The notes beneath the pieces were generated by a model, which searched no databases, was not told the origin of the DNA, and saw only the letters and a list, made by a program, of their open reading frames with translations. Position numbers and translations under genes: made by a program. From a virus (taxonomy: Duplodnaviria > Heunggongvirae > Uroviricota > Caudoviricetes): DNA of 27,879 nucleotides. Below are positions 3,713 to 24,914 of the stretch, in pieces. The stretch covers positions 1 to 27,879 of the IMG/VR virus record IMGVR_UViG_2648501730_000022; one strand, given 5' to 3'. Position 1 is the first letter of the stretch. Every line of letters starts with the position of its first letter.

Positions 3713-6067
3713 TTACATCTTACGGCGTTGTGCGTCTTCTACCGCCTGAGCAACTAACTTAGCGTGACGTTTGATAGCATCCATGACCATCTTGTCTGAG
3801 CTATTAACGTTGCCGTTAATGTTCAAAGGTGCGTTAACTTCAATCGGCTGAGAGTTGCCACCGCCTGATTTTTGAGCAGCAAGGAAGTCTTTCAAATCAC
3901 CGTTAGTACGCTGATCAACTACTCGTTCACCCTTATCAAGCAACCATGTACCCTCACGAGGGATATTATCGATACCATCATGAGCCATACCGCTAACGTT
4001 AGTAGACTTGATGTTTGCGATGTTCCCCATGTTCTGAGAAACAGCCAATGCAGCAGCAGCGATCTTTTGTCCTGTGGTTACGTTGGTCGGATCGTTCCAT
4101 GCATCGGTAGCAGCCGTCCACATGTTCACCGTCGCTTGTCCAATGGAGAATGCTTTATGAGCATTGAAAGCCATCTGCATAGCTTTAGTGTTTTCCTGCC
4201 CGAAGAGAGTCATTGCAGCAGCAAAACCGCCATACATATCATCGGCTATTGACTGGCGAGCATCAGCATATTTCTTTTCAATTGCAGCCATCCGTTTTTG
4301 ATGGTTTTCATTGAGTTTTTCTAATGCAGCCATCCGTTTAGCTGGATCATTAATACCATCAATATTGAGTTTTTCGGTCTTATAATCTTGTTCAGCTTCC
4401 GATTTCTCTTGATCGATTGCATTAAATTTAGCAAACGGGTTATTTGAATCCTGATAGTCTAAGCTATTAGTCAATTGATTGGTTTTAAAACCATCCATTC
4501 CCTGTAACTGACTATCAATCTGAGAATAGTTTTGCTCGGTATCATTCACACGACGCATATATTCTTCGTAGGAGATAGCTTTACCATCAAGTAACCGTTT
4601 ATGGCTTTCTAGCTCGTTGTCCCTGATTTGTTGCAAAACTGTTAAGGCATTCAGAGCATCAATCGGATCAGCACCCAACATCATTTTATAGATGTTTTCT
4701 GCGTTCTGATCTAACAGTTGCTGACGTTTAGCGGCTGCGTCTTGCTGAGAGATTAAGCCCATATCTAAAGCAGTGTCTAAATCTTTCAAGCTGGCTTCTA
4801 ACTGCTTGTTTTGAGAAGCAATAGACGCGGCTGTCTGTCCTTGCAATTTAACATCAAGAGCATTCAGTCGCTTGATTGCATCCTCGCGTGCTTTCTGTGC
4901 TTTTTCTGCGGCTTCCTTAGCCTTTTTAGCTGCCTCTTCCGCTTTCTTCTTGGCTTCTTCTTGTTCTTTTTTCGATGGTCCGGTGACGCCTCCACCTTGA
5001 CCCGTTGGGGTAAATCCGGTATCCGATTTATTTCCAGTGATAGTAATTACCGGATCACCGTTTTTATCACGGGTAACGCCTTCACTATCCACCCAACGAT
5101 CAGGATAATTTGGTTTATTGTTGAAGCTGGCTTGTCCACCCGCTAGACCAGTAGAACTATAACCATGCTTGTTAATAAAACCACCGTTAGCCATAGCCAT
5201 ATTCTGGCGAGCTTTTTCAAACCTTTCATTAAAAGTCTTTAATGCGTTGAATAAAGCGGTCTTTTCCCAATCTTTATCAAACCAGTTGTAAAGATTATTC
5301 ATCCCTTCAACAACTGGATTTAGTGCATTTGCAGCCATACCCTTTAAGTTATCGGTAAGGGTATCCATATTTTTAGAGAATTTATTATATTCTTCGGCTG
5401 TGTCATTGGTGATTTTAACAGTTTGCTGATTAATGGCGTTTACAGCTTCCTGATAAGATCCGTATTTCTGCAATTCATCAGCCATATGACTTGAATCACT
5501 GGCTAACGATTCCATCATAAACTTAACATCAGCGATAGACGCACCAGCCTTGCGCATATCATAGAAGACCTTGATCGCCGCTTTCATCCCGCCTTGTGGA
5601 TCGTTCATAAACTCGGCATAATCTTTAATCTTCAAACCTACACTTTCTAGGTCGTCTTCAATACCGCCACCGTTACGCCATGCATCAGCCAGCTTATCTA
5701 AGGTGTCTTTGTTAATATCACCAAATTTCTCAACGGTTAAGCCAGTACCGGAGAATTGCTTCTCTAATTTCTGGAGTGTTTCGACGGTTAAACCAGTTGC
5801 TTTTGAAACTTCGCTGTATTCCTTTACATAATCACCGATGGCATTTGCAGCAGAAATAGCGCCAGCAGCCAAACCAACAAAACCACCAGCAGCCAAAGCA
5901 AGCGATCCACCAGTTCCGCGAAGGGTTCCACTTAAACTAGATAAACCACCAGACAAATCAAGATTCATTGCCCTTTCTGAAAGGTTATCAAGCATCTCTA
6001 TCGCCTGATTGGTACTTCTCCTTAGACCGTCATTATCTCCTTCTATTGTTACTATATGTCTTGTCAT
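3713..6067 (-). CDS. Tail tape measure protein (784 aa)
   Basis: Long, largely helical protein with Gly-rich hydrophobic segments and a Lys/Glu/Ala coiled-coil block (KKEQEEAKKKAEEAAKKAKEAAEKAQKA); sits directly after the chaperone pair, as in lambda G/GT/H. Confidence 0.85.
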   Translation of the reverse strand: MTRHIVTIEGDNDGLRRSTNQAIEMLDNLSERAMNLDLSGGLSSLSGTLRGTGGSLALAAGGFVGLAAGAISAANAIGDYVKEYSEVSKATGLTVETLQKLEKQFSGTGLTVEKFGDINKDTLDKLADAWRNGGGIEDDLESVGLKIKDYAEFMNDPQGGMKAAIKVFYDMRKAGASIADVKFMMESLASDSSHMADELQKYGSYQEAVNAINQQTVKITNDTAEEYNKFSKNMDTLTDNLKGMAANALNPVVEGMNNLYNWFDKDWEKTALFNALKTFNERFEKARQNMAMANGGFINKHGYSSTGLAGGQASFNNKPNYPDRWVDSEGVTRDKNGDPVITITGNKSDTGFTPTGQGGGVTGPSKKEQEEAKKKAEEAAKKAKEAAEKAQKAREDAIKRLNALDVKLQGQTAASIASQNKQLEASLKDLDTALDMGLISQQDAAAKRQQLLDQNAENIYKMMLGADPIDALNALTVLQQIRDNELESHKRLLDGKAISYEEYMRRVNDTEQNYSQIDSQLQGMDGFKTNQLTNSLDYQDSNNPFAKFNAIDQEKSEAEQDYKTEKLNIDGINDPAKRMAALEKLNENHQKRMAAIEKKYADARQSIADDMYGGFAAAMTLFGQENTKAMQMAFNAHKAFSIGQATVNMWTAATDAWNDPTNVTTGQKIAAAALAVSQNMGNIANIKSTNVSGMAHDGIDNIPREGTWLLDKGERVVDQRTNGDLKDFLAAQKSGGGNSQPIEVNAPLNINGNVNSSDKMVMDAIKRHAKLVAQAVEDAQRRKM

Positions 6068-8012: not shown

Positions 8013-11000
8013 TTATTTAGTTGCTTTCAGTTCGGCAATTTCTTTCTGTAATGCTTCGATCTGGGCTTTATATTTGGCGTCCATTTCCTGCATAGCTTTG
8101 ATGATTAAAGCATTGACAGCAGAGTTAGAAATAGTCTTGATTGCTTCTGGATTTTCTGGATCTTCGGTGGATTGAATACCTACTGCTTCCGGCAATACTT
8201 CTTCCAGATCCTGAGCAATAATACCTACTTCGCGTTTAATCACACTACGGTCTTTAAGAGATTTAACTTTATCGTAGGTGTAGACTTTCAGTGAGTTTAC
8301 TTTCTCTAATGCGCCGTCCTGTAATTCTTCCTTGTTAATCTTCAAACGGGAGTCAGAGCGAATGTAAACATCGTTAAACGAACCGTTACGACCTGCGGTA
8401 AAGTCACCAGCAGCGTTAAAGTCAAAGTTAGTATCATGAACATGGAGACGAACAAGAGCGTTACCGATAGTACCGTCAGGAACGTGCACACCCATTGCTG
8501 CAATGTGATATTTACCCCAATGCGTCGCTTTCCATACGTTATGTGCCGAGTTGGTGGATTGAGGACACCCAACCATAAGACCAGCAGCACGGTCACGCCA
8601 GCTAGCCCAACTACCGCCAGCAACTTCACCACGAATCAGGCCATTACCGCCACCGGTTACAGTACCAGATTCCAACTGGATCATCTTATCCGCAAGTTTC
8701 CACGTCTGGGCTTGTTTCTGACCACGGAAGCGAATAACACCAGCATCATCGGAATACATCAAACCTAGTTCTAAGCCATTCGGATCTCTAAACCACAAAT
8801 GCTTATTACCAGTGCGCTTAAATTCAATATCAGCACCGTTAAGCGTGATATTACCGCCAGTGTGAATTGCTTGAGGCTTAACAGTACCGTTGATGGCAAA
8901 CTCAATTGCCGTAGTACCCGGACCGCCCGGACGTTGGGTATACCAATGCCAACCGCTTTCATCAGCACATTCAAATACTTGTTTACGAGCATCAGCGCCC
9001 CATGCACGAATATTGAAACTAGAAGTAGCTGTACCCTTACCCCAGCGAATCAGACCAGCAGATTCCAAATCACCGAAGAATTTAGTTTTAATCGCACCAG
9101 TTGCTAAAGTACGTTCAGTGGTGAAGTGAGCACCTTTACTATCTTCAAGCTGTATAACGTTATCACGAGCGTTATTGCTATCGCCCCAATGACTCAAACG
9201 GAAATAGTCGCGGGATTGTCCAGCACCAGCATCAAATGTTAAATATTGGCCTTTAATGTATGTGTTTCCAGCAAAACGAGCAGCACGACTTGCACGTTCT
9301 AAGACTAATGCACCTTCGTTACCATCACCACCCAAAGTAACATTACCGCTACCCAGATTGTAAATGAATGGACGATAGCCGTTCCAACCACCAAATTTAT
9401 CATTTTCGGCAGTAGACAGAAGATATACGTTTTGACCATCATTACGCCAGAATGCACCATAGTTACCGTAAATCATACGGAATGCATCACTGTTAGCAGC
9501 TACATATTGACCATTGGTGTATACAATTTTGGTAGCACCTGTGCTTAAAGATACTTGACCACTTGCTTCTAATTTAACAAAGTTTTTACCTTCGTCACTA
9601 TACCATTGAAAATCGTTAGTATCTGTAGAACCAAAACCAAACCAGCCTTGACGTTTATTAGCCCCGTCTCGCTGATCCATATATTCAAAATAGTTACTAC
9701 GACCAGTAGGACGCCACATACGAATCGCGTTATTGCCTTGCAGATGAAGTCTATCGACAAATAAACCATCACTACCAACAATTTTTAATACTTCTTTTTG
9801 GTCGGTGGAACCAGTAGCCAAACGATACACATCACCTTGAACAGTTTCATGCCATATTGTTTCCGCCGCACGACTGCGGAATTTACGCATATATTTTTTA
9901 TTGTTGTCTGGTACGTTATTAAGGCTCACAATATCATAGGTTGCTTGTGAGTTATTATCAAACATCAACGTTCCGGCTTTGTTTTCGGTGTTGAACATCG
10001 TAATAACACGAGCATCGGTAACACCAACAGAAGGTTTAACGAGAGTTAATTCAGGAACATCATGTACTGTCAGAGTAACGCCATCAGTTTTACCGTATTC
10101 GACAATAACGTTATCGGTGTAACGACCGTAGTTAACGTAGATATCGTAGTTATCACCGGAAGTATTAACCGCAAATACTTGATGAACGTTCAGAGCATTT
10201 CGACGATAAGCAGCAATACTAACGCCTTTCGGGTTATTGTTACCGGAACGGATGACAATTTCTACAAAGTCAACCTGATCATAAGAGTTAACGTTATAAC
10301 CATTACCACCGAAGATACGAAGCATTACCATTCGACCATTCTGTGGGATCGTAGCGGTTGCGATCTTGAAGTATCCACGAGTAGCATCACCAGAAGGAAC
10401 GGTCATTCTAACGTTCTTGATGAACATCTGATCAACTTCGGCTTTACTATACACACCCAATTCAGTCGGAGTCGGCTTATCACCTTCGTGATACATGCGG
10501 TAGCTGAATCGCTTATTACCATCTTTATCAAAGCCATAGGTTTTAACTTGAGATGAGCTAGACCCATAGTGGAACTCAAAACCGCGACCGTGTGCTTTAC
10601 CGCCAGAATGAGGAATGTTAAGGATTAAGTTACCCCAACCTTCGGCATTGTTTGGACGGAATGCACCAAAATAATCAAGGTTACGAGCACCAGCATCATC
10701 AAAATAGTTAGCTGTTTTGGTTAACAGATAGCCGTGATGGTAAGTGTTGGTATTCTTCTTGATGTAAGCAGCATCGGCACTACCTTCAATAGAATCAATT
10801 CGCTGGTTAGCTGCGGCAATTGCGGCATCAGTAGAAGATTTATTCTGGTCTACCTTGTTGTTAATTGCTGTATGGTTGCTATTAACTGTCCCCGTAAGAT
10901 TGGTGATCTTCGTGTCGGCATCGCGTTTATTATTTGCTACGGTCGTTTCTATGGCTGATTTATTTGCTGAGACAGTATTCGTTAAGTTAGTAACGTTGGT

Positions 11001-11513
11001 ATTAGTCTGATCAACTCGTGCATTAATATCTGTCTTGTTCTTGTTAATTGTTGCGTTGATAGTATCGCGGGTTGAAGTAATAGTCTGATTCAGTTCAGTC
11101 TTAGCAGCCGCCAGAGCGTTAGCCGCTTCGGTTTTATTGTTACCTACTGTGGTAGTCAAAGCATCAATTCGTTTGTTGGCTGCGGTGTCGCCAGCAGTGA
11201 TTGAAGCATTGAGAGCATCACGGGTAGAAGTGATAGTCTGATTCAGTTCAGCTTTAGCACTAGCCAGATTATTAGCGGCTTCTTGTTTGTTGGAAGCAAT
11301 AACACGGTCAGTGCTAGTTTTGTTATTGTCTACTTTCGTATTCAGTTCAGCGTGTTTTTCTGGAGAAACACTAATTTGGACTACGTTATTATTTTTGTCT
11401 TTGGTGTAAATCACATGATCCGCCAACTGTAAGGCGATTTCACCCTGTGATAATTGTTCCGGCGTTGGTTTTTTACCCGCCGTCTGTGTGCGTTTAAATT
11501 GGATTGATTGCAT
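8013..11513 (-). CDS. Long side tail fibre (1166 aa) with C-terminal intramolecular chaperone / peptidase S74-like domain
   Basis: ATG at 11511-11513 with GAGGTGA Shine-Dalgarno. Internal ~52-aa repeats near the N-terminus; a central motif (DESGWHWYTQR) recalled as P2 gpH / lambda Stf-like; C-terminal ~110 aa (SDSRLKINKEEL...VGIIAQDLEEVLPEAV...) matches the self-cleaving chaperone of T5 pb1 and K1F endosialidase. Confidence 0.75.
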   Translation of the reverse strand: MQSIQFKRTQTAGKKPTPEQLSQGEIALQLADHVIYTKDKNNNVVQISVSPEKHAELNTKVDNNKTSTDRVIASNKQEAANNLASAKAELNQTITSTRDALNASITAGDTAANKRIDALTTTVGNNKTEAANALAAAKTELNQTITSTRDTINATINKNKTDINARVDQTNTNVTNLTNTVSANKSAIETTVANNKRDADTKITNLTGTVNSNHTAINNKVDQNKSSTDAAIAAANQRIDSIEGSADAAYIKKNTNTYHHGYLLTKTANYFDDAGARNLDYFGAFRPNNAEGWGNLILNIPHSGGKAHGRGFEFHYGSSSSQVKTYGFDKDGNKRFSYRMYHEGDKPTPTELGVYSKAEVDQMFIKNVRMTVPSGDATRGYFKIATATIPQNGRMVMLRIFGGNGYNVNSYDQVDFVEIVIRSGNNNPKGVSIAAYRRNALNVHQVFAVNTSGDNYDIYVNYGRYTDNVIVEYGKTDGVTLTVHDVPELTLVKPSVGVTDARVITMFNTENKAGTLMFDNNSQATYDIVSLNNVPDNNKKYMRKFRSRAAETIWHETVQGDVYRLATGSTDQKEVLKIVGSDGLFVDRLHLQGNNAIRMWRPTGRSNYFEYMDQRDGANKRQGWFGFGSTDTNDFQWYSDEGKNFVKLEASGQVSLSTGATKIVYTNGQYVAANSDAFRMIYGNYGAFWRNDGQNVYLLSTAENDKFGGWNGYRPFIYNLGSGNVTLGGDGNEGALVLERASRAARFAGNTYIKGQYLTFDAGAGQSRDYFRLSHWGDSNNARDNVIQLEDSKGAHFTTERTLATGAIKTKFFGDLESAGLIRWGKGTATSSFNIRAWGADARKQVFECADESGWHWYTQRPGGPGTTAIEFAINGTVKPQAIHTGGNITLNGADIEFKRTGNKHLWFRDPNGLELGLMYSDDAGVIRFRGQKQAQTWKLADKMIQLESGTVTGGGNGLIRGEVAGGSWASWRDRAAGLMVGCPQSTNSAHNVWKATHWGKYHIAAMGVHVPDGTIGNALVRLHVHDTNFDFNAAGDFTAGRNGSFNDVYIRSDSRLKINKEELQDGALEKVNSLKVYTYDKVKSLKDRSVIKREVGIIAQDLEEVLPEAVGIQSTEDPENPEAIKTISNSAVNALIIKAMQEMDAKYKAQIEALQKEIAELKATK
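11051..11300 (-). repeat. Tandem in-frame ~156-nt repeats inside the fibre gene
   Basis: Two near-identical blocks (...AGTCTGATTCAGTTCAG...) encoding repeats of the form A.AK.ELNQTITSTRD.INA.I; further diverged copies upstream. Confidence 0.6.
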
Positions 11514-19458: not shown

Positions 19459-20064
19459 ATGCTAATTAATCAGCAAGAAAGAGATGAATTAGAATTAGCC
19501 TTGTCTTGTTGTACCGATCATGAATATCGTTTGCCAGTTAAGCACCATCACAAGAAGACTGATTACACTACATCCGGTTTTAGTCGCGAAGAAGCGAAGC
19601 AAATTTTAATCGAGTTGTATCGCGATCATGGGTATACAGATATCCATAACTTCTTTAAGAAGCACCGAACATCACAGACAGAGTTTCAGCGAGTCCGTGA
19701 ATGGTTTGATTTTGATATCAAGCGTTATTATCGAGTGGATGACGGTCCAATCTATCGGTTGCAGTGGAAGCCGATCAGGGAAGTGCTTAAACAGAAGAGA
19801 TTGAATCATGCCATTACACGCTATCGTAACGTGGCTTTCAAGAAAGGCTATGGTGATACAAGGGAATTGTTTGTAGAACTCGCTAACGTGCGATATAGCC
19901 ATTATTACAGGAATCCTAAAGAGTTCTTCGAAGTGCTGCGCAAGGTTGATATAAGTCGGGGTACATACTATTCACGGTTGAAGAAGTACGGGATTAAGGC
20001 AGAGTTTTTTATGTCAGTTGACGATGGAGAACTTTTTCCGATAAAATGTAAGTCCTCTAAATAA
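19459..20064 (+). CDS. Hypothetical basic protein with C-terminal HTH-like motif (201 aa)
   Basis: GGGGGG Shine-Dalgarno before the ATG; divergent from the terminase gene across an 87-bp gap; C-terminal SRGTYYSRLKKYGI resembles the 59-aa protein at 23335-23514. Confidence 0.5.
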   Translation: MLINQQERDELELALSCCTDHEYRLPVKHHHKKTDYTTSGFSREEAKQILIELYRDHGYTDIHNFFKKHRTSQTEFQRVREWFDFDIKRYYRVDDGPIYRLQWKPIREVLKQKRLNHAITRYRNVAFKKGYGDTRELFVELANVRYSHYYRNPKEFFEVLRKVDISRGTYYSRLKKYGIKAEFFMSVDDGELFPIKCKSSK

Positions 20065-20098: not shown

Positions 20099-20323
20099 AT
20101 GACTACTAAAGCTACTCGCGGTCGTCCTGCCCGTTTTAATCGTGAACAACTGGCAGAGATTGTAAAAGCGTACTATCAAGCACCGAAAGGTAAAGAGAAC
20201 AAAGAACGGGTATTAAATGAGCATGGCTTATCTATAGCCCAGCTATACAAATCCCTACATAAAGTTGATTTGAAATTCTTTGTTCAGGTTGACGGTGAAA
20301 TGGTAGAAGCAACAGGAAATTGA
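20099..20323 (+). CDS. Small DNA-binding protein with RGRP (AT-hook-like) N-terminus and HTH, 74 aa
   Basis: Start moved to the second ATG (20099), which has a GGAG Shine-Dalgarno ~8 nt upstream. Paralog of the 23335-23514 product (shared RP.(R/K)F.RE..(A/V)(E/D)I.K). Confidence 0.5.
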   Translation: MTTKATRGRPARFNREQLAEIVKAYYQAPKGKENKERVLNEHGLSIAQLYKSLHKVDLKFFVQVDGEMVEATGN

Positions 20324-21440: not shown

Positions 21441-21562
21441 AGTTCACATCCTCTTTACAAACCTAGGTCAAATCAGTTCAAAGTTGTCAAGTGCGATAAT
21501 CATAAAAAAGTCTGAAAATTTTGCCAATACCCCTTGACAAGATGCCAAAGGGTTGACCTAAC

Positions 21563-22030
21563 TTACAGCATATCTAAGCCTTCATCGTAACCGTAGAAGC
21601 CACCGTGAGAAGAAAAAGCGATTGGTGCGTAGTCATCATCATCTTCGTCTTCTTCATCGCGTTCTGGTGCTTTCTGAGCGGTTTCTTTGCCGTAGTTAAA
21701 CATTGCTTCATCCAGTTCTTGAAGAGTAAAGAAGCTACCCAGATCAACATCACCGGAACGGACTTCGAAAGGAAGGTATTCGCTAACGATGATCGCTGGA
21801 ATATTCTGGTACTTTAAGCGGCCTTCATCGGTGAAGACGTTAACAACAATGGTCGGCTTCTTATTACGGCAAAACGCATACCATACACTAGAGAAATGAG
21901 ATTCATCAGAGTTGAAAAGAATGTTGTAACCACGTTCAACAAAGATCTTCATTAACTTGTCATTGTGGAAGCTATCAGCATCAAAACCTAACAGGATGAA
22001 AGGAGTAGTGGTAGTCATTTTATGGTTCAT
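21563..22030 (-). CDS. Hypothetical protein with strongly acidic C-terminal tail (155 aa)
   Basis: AGAGGA Shine-Dalgarno before the ATG; C-terminal ERDEEDEDDDDYAPIAF...; first gene leftward from the long intergenic region. Confidence 0.5.
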   Translation of the reverse strand: MNHKMTTTTPFILLGFDADSFHNDKLMKIFVERGYNILFNSDESHFSSVWYAFCRNKKPTIVVNVFTDEGRLKYQNIPAIIVSEYLPFEVRSGDVDLGSFFTLQELDEAMFNYGKETAQKAPERDEEDEDDDDYAPIAFSSHGGFYGYDEGLDML

Positions 22031-22645
22031 AGTGGAAATCCTCTAAAAGAAAGCGAATCAATCTAATATTATTTATAAAGAGAAAATTCTTGTTATTATG
22101 AAAAGAGTGATCTGGTAGAGTCCAAAACTGGTCTGTACTTGAAAGATGATTGGATTCAGTCGGGCTAAAGCCCCCCTTCATAGATTTGATTAAATCATCA
22201 TCAAAACGAAGAAGTATCTTTAGAATATAAGAATCTTTCTTTTGAAGAAATAATAATCAGGAAGCAATTTAGCAACCGAAGGTTGCAATCCCGAAGGGAT
22301 ACCAATACCTTTCTAGAAATTGATTGTTACTCACTTCGTTCGTTTACTAGAATCAGTTAGTAACTAGTATTAAATCCCTTTCTAAGAAAATCCTTTTAAA
22401 AGTGAGTGAACGCCGTAGGCGTGAACGTGAGCGAAGCGAACTATCAATCCCTTTCGAATCCTGCTTGCAGGTCTTAGAAGGTGTTGGTGGGCGCTACGCG
22501 CACGGCTACGCCGTATTCTTTTTGCGAGATCTTTCTTGAACGTAGTGAGAGAAAGCGAGCAAAAAGGAGAACGTTAGTTCGAATTTTATATTCTATGGTC
22601 TGTGGGGTATAATACCTTTCAAGGTCATACACTTACGTGATTGAA

Positions 22646-22764
22646 GTGTAGGGTTAGTGTAGGTGTGTAGGTTTCATAGTGTAGGTTTGAGGGTGTTATA
22701 GTGTAGGTTTACTGGCTAGTGTAGTGTAGGCCAATCCCTTTAAAGGGTAGGTGTGTAGTGTAGG
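22646..22764. repeat. Iteron-like direct-repeat array, 7 copies of GTGTAGG (mostly GTGTAGGTTT)
   Basis: Copies begin at 22646, 22657, 22665, 22679, 22701, 22724 and 22758, same orientation, irregular spacing; the 12-bp palindrome CCCTTTAAAGGG (22735-22746) sits inside the array. Confidence 0.7.
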
Positions 22765-22961
22765 TTTTCAATCAAAAATTTTGACAAAAAATTCTTGTAT
22801 ATTATTCAACCAAAAAACCACCAAAAATAGATGTAAATTCATGATTTAAAAGAAATTTTCAAAAGATCTCCGTGCCATATAAGGTTTAAAAGGTTGATAA
22901 TCATTATTTGCCATTTTCAAACAAAAATTTTGATACACCTTTCTCGCTTAGATCATGAATG

Positions 22962-22990
22962 TTGACATGTGTCAAGAACTATTTTATACT
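22962..22990 (+). promoter_or_regulatory. Near-consensus sigma70-type promoter with operator-like palindrome over the -35
   Basis: TTGACA (22962-22967), 17-nt spacer, TATACT (22985-22990); TTGACAtgTGTCAA is a 14-bp palindrome. Confidence 0.5.
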
Positions 22991-23128
22991 TTTTATCCTT
23001 GGTAGGGGTTGAAATTTTCCAAACAATCCCCATATAGATGATAAGCATGATTTTTCGTGTATAAATACAATGCATGAAAAATGATTGTTCACTTCTGAAA
23101 ATCCCTTGACTAACTGTTAATTCATACA

Positions 23129-23155
23129 GCACTGGTTAGATATGCAGTGCTTTTT
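23129..23155 (+). terminator. Intrinsic terminator ~140 nt downstream of the promoter
   Basis: GCACUG-(10-nt loop)-CAGUGC followed by U5. Confidence 0.5.
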
Positions 23156-23334
23156 CGGTCGAATATTGTACGAATTGATTAATTATTAATCTTCTCTTTA
23201 GCAATTCGTGCTCCCACTGATCGGATATACAGTTGTTTTACAGAGTTTTTGAAAATCATTTTTATAAATAGAATTGTTCAGAGCGAAAAGCTCTTTTTTA
23301 AGGAATTATTAATCCACATGTGAGGAATCGATTT

Positions 23335-23514
23335 ATGGCTAGACCTGTTAAATTTACTCGTGAAATGATTGTTGATATTGCTAAACGGTTTTACAGCGAC
23401 ACTGAGCGAGGCGGGGAAAACTTCTTTAAGAAGGAAGGGATTGATAGAAGCGGATTCTATAAGCTAATGAAGAAATACGAAATTCAGGTAAAGATTAACG
23501 TTCAAGTTTGTTAA
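23335..23514 (+). CDS. Small HTH protein, paralog of the 20099-20323 product (59 aa)
   Basis: ATG at 23335 has a GAGGAA Shine-Dalgarno 7 nt upstream (the track start is a GTG with none); MARPVKFTREMIVDIAKRFY... aligns with the other paralog. Confidence 0.5.
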   Translation: MARPVKFTREMIVDIAKRFYSDTERGGENFFKKEGIDRSGFYKLMKKYEIQVKINVQVC

Positions 23515-23630
23515 TCCACTTTCACTGAGAATTATATGATGGCTTTAAAAATAAAAAGCCTCCCTTGTTGCAGCAAAGGAGACTTGAAATGAACAATTAA
23601 AACTAACACAGCATTCAGGAGTATTTATAA

Positions 23631-24656
23631 ATGAAAAATTCTAAGCGCATCACCTTCAACCTATTCATCAAATCCAACGGCAAACTGAACATTACCGTTA
23701 TGGAAGGTAAAGCAAGCAAACAAGACAAATCCTTTGAAGTAGTATCCGGTAAGACTCTGACCGAAATGCGTCAGAATGCTGGCATCAAAGACGGTGCTGA
23801 ATGGCAGATCACTAACCGTTTCGACAAACGTCACGTTAAACCTACACTGGTAGAAGGTGAATCCGTTTATTGCTTCGCTCGTGCTGTTAAAGCCGATGAA
23901 ACTTACTATCTCGCTGTTATTAAAACTGCTTCCGGCTTCCGTGCTGTAATGCATCACAAGAGCAAGCGTAACGAATACGGCGTAGAGACCCAGGAAGTTG
24001 CAAAACGCTTCCGTACTGTTGCTACTGAATCCACTGTAAAGGATGTTTCTGGTACTGTTAACACCGCTAAAGGCGGTTCCTTCTACAACCACGCATTACA
24101 GGTTACTTCCTCCTTCTTCTGCAAAAAAGAAGCACAGAAAGAAGTTGCTCCGGTAGTAGTTGAAGAAGTTAAAGAAGAAGTTGCAGTGGTTGAATCTTCC
24201 GAAGTTGAAGCACTGAAAGCACGCATTGCTGAACTGGAAGCTGAAAACGCATCTCTGAAAGCTGAACTGGCAGCGCAGGAAACCACTTTCGAAGTAGCAG
24301 CGGTTGAAGTTGAAGCAGTTGAAGAAAAATCCATTGATGAAGAACTGGAAGAACTCCTTAACTATCGCTGGGGTAACGGTGAAAAAGTAGGACAGGAAGA
24401 ACAGAAAGAAGCTGATCCGGTAGTAGTTCCGGTTGAAGAAAAATCCGCACCTGTTACTAACTTTGAATCCCTGCGCAATAACTTTATGGCTAAATTCAAA
24501 ACCACTTGGGAAGATACCGAAGAAGAACAAGAAGAGATTGAAGTAAACGAAGACGAGATCCGCGAAGCACAGATGGCACTGCATGACGCTATCTATGACA
24601 CCAACTACAGCGCCTACGCCTACGCCTACGCCTACGCCTACGCCTACGCAGCTTAA
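23631..24656 (+). CDS. Strongly codon-optimised acidic protein with (AY)6-AA C-terminus (341 aa), function unknown
   Basis: AGGAG Shine-Dalgarno 9 nt before the ATG; codon use is almost exclusively CTG/CGT/GGT/AAA/GAA/ACC/TTC, unlike neighbouring genes; central Glu/Val-rich coiled coil; ends ...SAYAYAYAYAYAYAA. Confidence 0.7.
   Translation: MKNSKRITFNLFIKSNGKLNITVMEGKASKQDKSFEVVSGKTLTEMRQNAGIKDGAEWQITNRFDKRHVKPTLVEGESVYCFARAVKADETYYLAVIKTASGFRAVMHHKSKRNEYGVETQEVAKRFRTVATESTVKDVSGTVNTAKGGSFYNHALQVTSSFFCKKEAQKEVAPVVVEEVKEEVAVVESSEVEALKARIAELEAENASLKAELAAQETTFEVAAVEVEAVEEKSIDEELEELLNYRWGNGEKVGQEEQKEADPVVVPVEEKSAPVTNFESLRNNFMAKFKTTWEDTEEEQEEIEVNEDEIREAQMALHDAIYDTNYSAYAYAYAYAYAYAA
24612..24647 (+). 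repeat. Hexanucleotide microsatellite (GCCTAC)x6 encoding the (AY)6 tail
   Basis: Six perfect tandem GCCTAC units in frame at the 3' end of the 341-aa gene. Confidence 0.9.
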
Positions 24657-24671
24657 TAGAGAGGTAATTCT

Positions 24672-24914
24672 ATGATTAATCAAAACAAAGAATTTCTTGG
24701 TAATCTGATGTTAGAAATTACCAAAATGAAAGAAAGAATGGTAGCGATGGAATCAGAGATTAAAACTCTTAAAGCTGATAATAAGGCGTTGAGAAAGTCC
24801 TTAAAACTGATTGATGAGACTAATGCGGTTATGATGGATCAGGTGTTTCCTGAGTGGCGAAATGAAACTAAACCTACACAACATAAGAAACCTACACTTC
24901 GAATTGTTGCATAA
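24672..24914 (+). CDS. Small coiled-coil protein (80 aa)
   Basis: AGAGG Shine-Dalgarno before the ATG; starts 16 nt after the upstream stop; helical K/E-rich sequence. Confidence 0.5.
   Translation: MINQNKEFLGNLMLEITKMKERMVAMESEIKTLKADNKALRKSLKLIDETNAVMMDQVFPEWRNETKPTQHKKPTLRIVA

Follow-up and report, generated by a model that had tools for sequence, protein, structure and literature searches.

A G-rich direct-repeat array of E. coli prophages varies together with the N-terminal domain of an ORFan protein and is a candidate replication origin

Introduction

The replication origin of phage lambda combines iterons with an AT-rich tract and is bound by the O protein (PMC7466680). Here we describe an array of GTGTAGG direct repeats with iteron anatomy from an E. 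coli prophage, and report that the type of array found at this position in related prophages follows the N-terminal domain of a 341-aa ORFan protein, p341, encoded to its right. The array lies in a 27,879-nucleotide stretch of DNA from a tailed virus (IMG/VR record IMGVR_UViG_2648501730_000022; hereafter the window), which makes up most of a ~35-kb prophage.

In lambdoid O proteins the N-terminal domain is specific for ori and the C-terminal domain for the partner, and in P2, 186 and lambda the replication genes are placed after a small helix-turn-helix (HTH) gene in a rightward unit. The prophage locus resembles lambdoid ori/O in that its same-orientation repeats adjoin an AT-rich tract, in that repeat specificity covaries with the N-domain of a modular protein whose C-domain assorts independently, in that several specificities occur among otherwise similar temperate phages, and in that the gene lies in an early rightward unit after a small HTH gene (p341 is second in this unit, after p59). 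However, the array lies 870 bp upstream of the p341 gene (23631-24656), whereas lambdoid iterons lie inside the gene, and its repeats are 7-12-bp cores rather than 19-bp dyad-containing iterons. p341 also has no sequence or fold similarity to O (no match to Pfam Phage_rep_O), and the prophage has no P-like loader.

Iteron plasmids (P1 RepA, R6K pi, pSC101 RepA, F RepE, RK2 TrfA) are alike in carrying 5-10 direct repeats at ~22-bp phasing, upstream of the gene for the binder and adjacent to an AT-rich region. Their Rep proteins autoregulate via inverted repeat copies, and an inverted pair is likewise present at a promoter in L045, a divergent relative of the window; extra outlying copies in the prophage recall incA. 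In contrast to these plasmids, the element is integrated as a prophage; a search of 72,556 plasmids gave no match, and the element has no Rep_3 or winged-helix signature and no DnaA box. A third comparison is with the repressor of phage Mu, which binds many repeated sites and is built of an N-terminal DNA-binding domain, a leucine zipper and a C terminus sensitive to ClpXP. p341 would share the N-terminal DNA-binding domain, and has a coiled coil and a C-terminal tail that is potentially a ClpXP signal; in both systems many repeated sites occupy an intergenic control region. Mu operators, however, overlap the early and repressor promoters whereas the prophage array avoids promoters, the Mu repressor gene is divergent from the early operon whereas the p341 gene lies inside the rightward unit, and the Mu repressor has no sequence similarity to p341.

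Results

A phased direct-repeat array is conserved or replaced in related prophages

An earlier note on the window had described seven same-strand copies of GTGTAGG in a 1.3-kb AT-rich gap between divergent genes, and both observations hold: the copies start at positions 22646, 22657, 22665, 22679, 22701, 22724 and 22758 of the + strand (seven within 119 bp), and the gap spans 1304 bp (22031-23334) at 30-43% GC. Three further copies with one mismatch lie on the same strand (22719, 22745 and 22753). Over the whole window and both strands GTGTAGG matches 11 times against 1.65 expected, a count reached in 0 of 100 shuffles; for the 9-mer GTGTAGGTT the count is 8, with 0.11 expected. The extended consensus of the repeat is (T)TAGTGTAGGTTT. 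Copies at 22657, 22679, 22701, 22724 and 22745 form a main frame with steps of 21-23 bp, about two helical turns, and Tandem Repeats Finder reports a 22-bp period. The region is non-coding, with no open reading frame (ORF) of at least 40 aa covering the array, which rules it out as a small ORF. As a single strand the array shows no structure beyond chance (z = -0.27), and G-quadruplex formation was set aside as a general property of such arrays, the GTGTAGG type (type A) being without runs capable of it. Inverted (- strand) copies of GTGTAGGTT also occur outside the array, at 5635, 23839, 24871 and 24889, where the + strand reads AAACCTACAC.

The earlier note had proposed comparing repeat copy number among relatives, and had taken absent or unconserved repeats in them as evidence against its reading. 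The comparison showed otherwise, with the repeats either conserved or replaced at the same position by other arrays. The GTGTAGG array and its spacing are kept in 22 related E. coli and metagenome loci (14 distinct sequences), in which the heptamer columns are about half as variable as the spacers (0.041 versus 0.079, p about 0.02); repeat units amounting to 14 or 22 bp are deleted in two variants. L045, the most divergent carrier of GTGTAGG, has its first six heptamers intact and its spacers changed; the outlying inverted copies are not kept there. In other relatives the flanks align and the array is swapped for a different same-orientation array, G-rich on the + strand. Five array types thus occur at the same position (GTGTAGG, GTGCAGG, a GGGGCAA type, a CTTGGGG type and CGGGGA; carriers of several variants are listed in Table 1), all with a modal spacing of 20-23 bp or 11 bp and all with more G than C on the + strand (skew 0.14-0.50).

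The array is therefore real and functional-looking, and the iteron label given to it by the earlier note is apt. The 12-bp palindrome reported within it, CCCTTTAAAGGG, does exist, but it lies at 22736-22747 rather than one base to the left, and we rejected it as a functional dyad because it is not conserved in relatives (AAAGCG in strain DEC5A, AAAGTG in others and TTTCATGTG in L018). It is incidental: the supposed palindrome is the fifth copy (22733) of a second direct-repeat family, AATMCCTTTH, whose five copies in the gap compare with 0.75 expected over the whole window (0 of 100 shuffles reached the observed count) and which has similar copies in relatives with other array types.

Array type follows the N-terminal domain of p341

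We compared every neighbouring protein across loci, about 45 in all, and found that array type matches the N-terminal ~170 aa of p341 in ~45 of ~45. Within a 22-locus subset, array and N-domain types agreed in 8 of 8 type A, 8 of 8 type B and 6 of 6 type C loci. The whole of p341 is 96-100% identical in the eight type A loci compared first, and the N-domain 99% identical in a further eight. N-domain identity is 78% in L045, where GTGTAGG is kept, and 43-48% in loci with GTGCAGG, while the N-domains that accompany unrelated repeats cannot be aligned.

None of p59, the 76-aa protein p76 (20099-20323), Rha, the 155-aa protein p155, the small terminase TerS, the gene downstream of p341 or the p341 C-domain tracks the array type. 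p59, encoded between the array and p341, has three alleles found in every combination, the allele of the window accompanying arrays A, B and C. Within type A, identity ranges from 53 to 89% for Rha, from 66 to 97% for p76 and from 59 to 88% for p155, and TerS is 77-98% identical regardless of type (92% in type B, for instance, against 78% in one type A locus). Type B occurs with two different p341 C-domains, with or without the downstream gene, and the C-terminal domains of types B and C are 86% identical, yet their N-domains and arrays differ.

Because the three p59 alleles assort independently of the array, p59 is not its specificity determinant, and the binders put forward by the earlier note (p59, p76 or Rha) are not supported, since array type tracks the p341 N-domain without exception and none of these proteins. 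Recombination has repeatedly split off all the surroundings of the array and the N-domain but never the one from the other, and we therefore take the N-domain to bind the repeats, on evidence that is strong but indirect. Judged from this sequence covariation, binding of the GTGTAGG array by the p341 N-domain is highly probable. The new result is a five-way specificity match between array and ORFan protein domain.

p341 resembles no known initiator or repressor

Members of the p341 family share a fixed layout, in which the N-domain is followed by a coiled coil, then an acidic linker rich in Pro and Val, and finally a C-domain that varies. Whatever the C-domain, the protein terminates in -AA in nearly all of them (RKAA, RRAA, LKAA, DFAA), an ending that by analogy may recall ssrA-like ClpX signals. 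In the window a (CGCCTA)6.5 microsatellite (24611-24649) encodes the tail YAYAYAYAYAYAA (YAYAYA...AA), and most relatives have 2.5 copies (YAYAA).

The family has no match in Pfam, PHROG, NCBIfam or PADLOC, and none in the PDB by profile search. Six p341 relatives emerged when 1.84 billion representative proteins were searched exhaustively, two word-indexed searches returned only 'hypothetical' proteins of E. coli, Shigella and Salmonella, and tblastn against phages and plasmids gave no named homologue, with no match in any of the plasmids. A single-sequence AlphaFold2 model was unusable (predicted local distance difference test, pLDDT, 44). A nine-sequence AlphaFold model of the N-domain is beta-rich with two helices (predicted template modelling score, pTM, 0.69) and has no significant fold match in the PDB or among viral models; its weak, non-significant matches include PUR-alpha, a purine-strand binder, and HutP, an RNA binder. 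p341 has no known repressor domain such as HTH_3 or S24 peptidase, and we set it aside as an HUH rolling-circle initiator because types B and C do not keep the MxHxSRR motif. Membership in a known initiator or repressor family fails at every level tested. The earlier note had seen no replication initiator gene in the window, which is true by homology, but p341 is a candidate by position and covariation.

The array, an AT-rich tract and p341 as a candidate origin module

The earlier note had recognised the architecture of an origin, a partition site or an operator. The iteron anatomy holds, with an origin as the best single reading of the array and an operator as a live rival, but a partition site would be without an NTPase partner. 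We hold with moderate confidence, from the sequence comparisons, that array, AT-rich tract and p341 form the replication-origin/initiator module of the prophage, following the logic of lambda ori/O and iteron plasmids. In such a module the array would be the cognate multi-site DNA target of the p341 N-domain; p341 would oligomerise via its coiled coil and occupy 5-10 same-orientation sites phased by about two helical turns, forming a nucleoprotein complex on one face of the DNA. This complex would destabilise the adjoining AT-rich tract (22765-22870), and the exchangeable C-domain of p341, possibly together with the small downstream protein, would recruit host replication proteins.

The origin reading is favoured because phased direct repeats adjoin a conserved AT-rich tract, because specificity would reside in the N-domain of a modular protein with an exchangeable C-part, as in lambdoid ori/O, because the p341 gene follows a small HTH gene in a rightward unit, and because the phage is otherwise without anything to start replication. 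The tract, unlike the array, is conserved in sequence across all array types; it opens with the near-palindrome ATCAAAAATTTTGA, holds TTCAAnCAAAAA repeats, and is a candidate for the unwinding element, for the site of a factor that all types share, or for both. In the RefSeq annotation the 35-kb element as a whole shows no recognisable replication, repressor or Cro-type gene, and scanning each non-structural protein against Pfam, PHROG, NCBIfam and PADLOC revealed no replication or repressor gene either.

Several observations weigh against an origin. The prophage has no helicase, loader or primase gene, and the DnaA box TTWTNCACA is absent from the whole window, although DnaA boxes are not universal at iteron origins and the lambda ori is without them. 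The least stable 40-mers of the gap lie elsewhere than the tract beside the array, which is not uniquely unstable because the whole gap is AT-rich. p341 resembles no Rep or O family and no known DNA-binding fold, and the model of its N-domain is only moderately confident (pLDDT 65.5). Part of the covariation is drawn from clonal E. coli lineages, and many loci are clonal relatives of one another, so that independent events are fewer than loci. Finally, at least five specificities occur among prophages that are otherwise ~90% identical, a pattern closer to immunity-type diversification than to the variation usual at origins, and in L045 an inverted repeat pair, CCCTACAC...TAGTGTAGG, flanks a TATAAATA box in an operator-like arrangement. 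The inverted pair nevertheless fits an origin and a regulator alike, because iteron-plasmid Rep proteins autoregulate in this way.

These last two observations belong to the main rival, in which the array is a multi-site operator or upstream site array and p341 regulates transcription, as a repressor of the immunity type, as its own regulator, or by activating the rightward or leftward early units. Many specificities among close relatives are typical of immunity regions, no other repressor is recognisable in the prophage, p341 joins a coiled coil to the C-terminal -AA of nearly all members, the array sits between divergent transcription units, and L021 has an extra repeat copy beside a promoter. 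We nonetheless consider this rather unlikely. The array lies ~200 bp upstream of the strong promoter of the gap and ~550 bp from where the leftward gene begins. In four of the five types, A', B and C among them, it holds no promoter-like site (those of the window are not conserved), and the sites are direct repeats at 22-bp phasing rather than dyads. p341 sits in the presumptive lytic unit, behind two terminator-like hairpins. Moreover, the near-consensus promoter has a palindrome of its own, TTGACA-NN-TGTCAA, which occurs in 37 fetched loci of all array types and would fit a type-independent repressor. This palindrome is a candidate type-independent operator and promoter of the p59-p341 unit, perhaps the operator for a 201-aa protein (19459-20064) that is 88-99% conserved across all array types, and it points to an immunity operator separate from the array.

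It is improbable that the repeats instead act as single strand or RNA, with a G-rich RNA or R-loop priming replication or with p341 binding single-stranded DNA or RNA. The G-richness of the + strand in all five types would agree with this, as would the promoter-like sites aimed into the array in the window (22585-22613 and a PeSL-like cassette, described below) and the fold matches to PUR-alpha and HutP. But most type A relatives have GTGAAAT or TCAAAT in place of the proximal promoter's -10 (TATAAT), every type has a terminator-like hairpin ahead of the array, the array strand forms no stable structure, the fold matches are far below significance, and the shared G-richness can be put down to homologous binding domains having descended from a common ancestor.

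A centromere-like, titration or handcuffing site, either an analogue of parC/parS or a sink like P1 incA that controls the availability of p341, is more improbable still. In R1 parC/ParR a direct-repeat array lies upstream of the operon encoding its binder, as here, and outlying inverted copies lie 1.1-2.2 kb away from the array; yet those copies are not kept in L045, no partition NTPase (ParA, ParM, TubZ) is encoded in the window or the full DEC5A prophage, and an integrated prophage with a serine recombinase needs no partition. The least probable account, binding by the small HTH paralogs (p59, p76) or Rha or use as a small-terminase packaging site (cosB/pac), has in its favour genes close to the array with HTH-like or Rha domains, but is contradicted by the independent assortment of p59 alleles, by the divergence of Rha and p76 within type A, and by TerS identities that do not follow array type.

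Returning to the origin reading, a bolder version is a tentative possibility: p341 and its relatives may form an unrecognised, fast-diversifying class of sequence-specific initiator, with a beta-rich N-domain (as modelled) unrelated to winged-helix Rep and O proteins, serving as the sole phage-encoded replication function of a prophage family without any known replication gene, and giving at least five mutually orthogonal origin/initiator pairs that possibly read the G-rich strand.

Other elements of the gap and neighbouring genes

The features of the locus are collected in Table 1. Between the strong promoter and the p59 gene, the 340-nt leader contains two terminator-like hairpins (23127-23156 and 23280-23300), an arrangement that suggests attenuation or antitermination control, or a short leader RNA.

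Table 1. Coordinates of features in the window, and arrays and genes of related loci
Feature	Position	Strand	Description
PeSL-like stem-loop and promoter-like cassette	22158..22262	+	points towards array
Hairpin-rich non-coding stretch	22236..22525	+	between PeSL-like cassette and array
AATMCCTTTH direct-repeat family	22304..22742	+	five copies: 22304, 22373, 22446, 22611, 22733
Iteron array	22641..22767	+	seven exact GTGTAGG, three degenerate copies; main spacing 21-23 bp
AT-rich tract	22765..22870	.	about 78% AT; directly right of array
Near-consensus sigma-70 promoter	22962..22990	+	TTGACA-17-TATACT (11/12); -35 inside palindrome TTGACA-NN-TGTCAA
p59	23335..23514	+	59-aa HTH-like protein; first gene of rightward unit
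p341 N-domain (codons 1-170)	23631..24140	+	covaries with array type; putative iteron-binding domain
p341 remainder	24141..24656	+	coiled coil, acidic Pro/Val-rich linker, C-domain assorting independently of array type
Outlying inverted GTGTAGGTT	23839..23847	-	inside p341 gene
p80	24672..24914	+	80-aa coiled-coil protein; downstream of p341
Two outlying inverted GTGTAGGTT (24871, 24889)	24871..24897	-	3' end of p80; most relatives have one
Gene after p341, L008	6738-7079		
Gene after p341, L009	6793-7653		
Gene after p341, L014	2861-3862	-	
Gene after p341, L020	6070-6930		
Array TTTCAGGGGCAAAA			PEC41, L011, L013, L028-L035
Array GGAATCTTGGGGATTT			STEC1575, L022-L027
Array CGGGGA			about 13-16 copies; L014
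Array TTAGTGCAGG			Salmonella contig L020, and L021

PeSL cassettes, each a stem-loop followed by a strong early promoter, are known from RB49-type phages (PMC2839356). We found 2-3 copies per genome in T4-like phages of the RB49, phi1 and JSE type, and their intergenic PeSL promoter regions are 76-82% identical to positions 22177-22262 of the window, DNA that neighbours the array rather than forming part of it. A stem-loop, GGGCTAAAGCCC (GGGC...GCCC), precedes an AT-rich promoter-like stretch in the prophage copy as well, although that copy resides in a temperate siphovirus-like element. In PEC41 and STEC1575 the stem-loop, CAGTCGGGC(T)AAAGCCCTCC, has a second copy where the swapped segment borders the left flank, which may be a recombination joint for cassette exchange. 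Between cassette and array, the predicted RNA fold of 22236-22525 (-86.8 kcal/mol, z = -4.2, 0 of 200 shuffles) includes many GAA, GTA and TAC triloop mini-hairpins and a long imperfect hairpin (22418-22512) with a U tract after it (terminator-like, 22502-22524), and has no Rfam match; from this stretch the PeSL-like promoter could produce a structured RNA of ~290 nt. An Rfam search of the gap, at gathering thresholds and at E<=1, found nothing relevant.

In the two most distant relatives, L020 (4229-4246) and L021 (4286-4301), a sigma-54-like motif (TGGCAC-N5-TTGC) is found ~130 bp to the right of the TTAGTGCAGG arrays; we set it aside, as it occurs in these two loci only and not in the window.

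The gene after p341 is absent or encodes 80, 113, 286 or 333 aa, with unrelated N-terminal parts, and every version ends in the conserved peptide (P)TLR(L/I/V)VA; p80 is a possible partner of p341. The HTH-like module of which the 76-aa (20099-20323) and 59-aa (23335-23514) proteins consist is present twice, in tandem, in the 201-aa protein. The first leftward gene encodes p155 (21563-22030, - strand), which has no family match and ends in a strongly acidic, (E/D)-rich tail (...DYAPI..FYGYDEGLDML) that, in its sequence, recalls the C-terminal tails of single-stranded DNA-binding (SSB) proteins or DNA mimics.

The prophage family and its hosts

Strain C325 is 100% identical to the window over bases 21500-24000, and relatives at 82-97% identity occur in 58 of 5,426 complete E. 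coli genomes (roughly 1%). No complete E. coli genome searched carries two copies. The hosts of the family are E. coli (including O55:H7 and enterotoxigenic strains), Shigella and Salmonella. An intact copy in O55:H7 strain DEC5A sits inside hicB, and other copies are located at ycdX. One end of the DEC5A element carries three small genes and a large serine recombinase, followed by lysis, tail and head genes and a gpA-type large terminase, all leftward; then come a 6-kb stretch of genes without known function, the small terminase and an LprI-like gene. The terminase small and large subunit genes of the hicB prophage (L002, L003) are 6 kb apart.

None of 50,697 phage records shares the region, no family member among them has been isolated as a phage, and the closest phage match of the capsid is only 43% identical. 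Matches of at least 99% to Shiga toxin (Stx) phages were seen for the window. The tail-fibre gene (8013-11513) is ~77-82% identical in nucleotides to the distal long-tail-fibre gene (gp37) of RB49-like T4-type phages, a second sign of DNA exchange between the prophage family and these phages. We found no tRNA genes and no sign of a defence system with PADLOC, two scans of contigs from species-representative genomes returned no relatives, and a literature search on this prophage returned nothing.

Discussion

With the covariation, a repeat that was anonymous becomes one half of a protein-DNA pair that can be tested directly. If p341 is the initiator of this module, a prophage family of E. coli, Shigella and Salmonella would replicate via an origin-binding protein that homology and fold methods do not recognise, which would explain the apparent lack of a replication module in these prophages. 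p341 would then supply a DNA-binding domain that is new, occurs naturally in at least five specificities and has known target motifs, and the pairs would offer orthogonal origin/initiator or operator/regulator combinations for engineering. Even if p341 is instead a regulator, the family would represent a new class of protein-DNA recognition with a ready-made specificity code.

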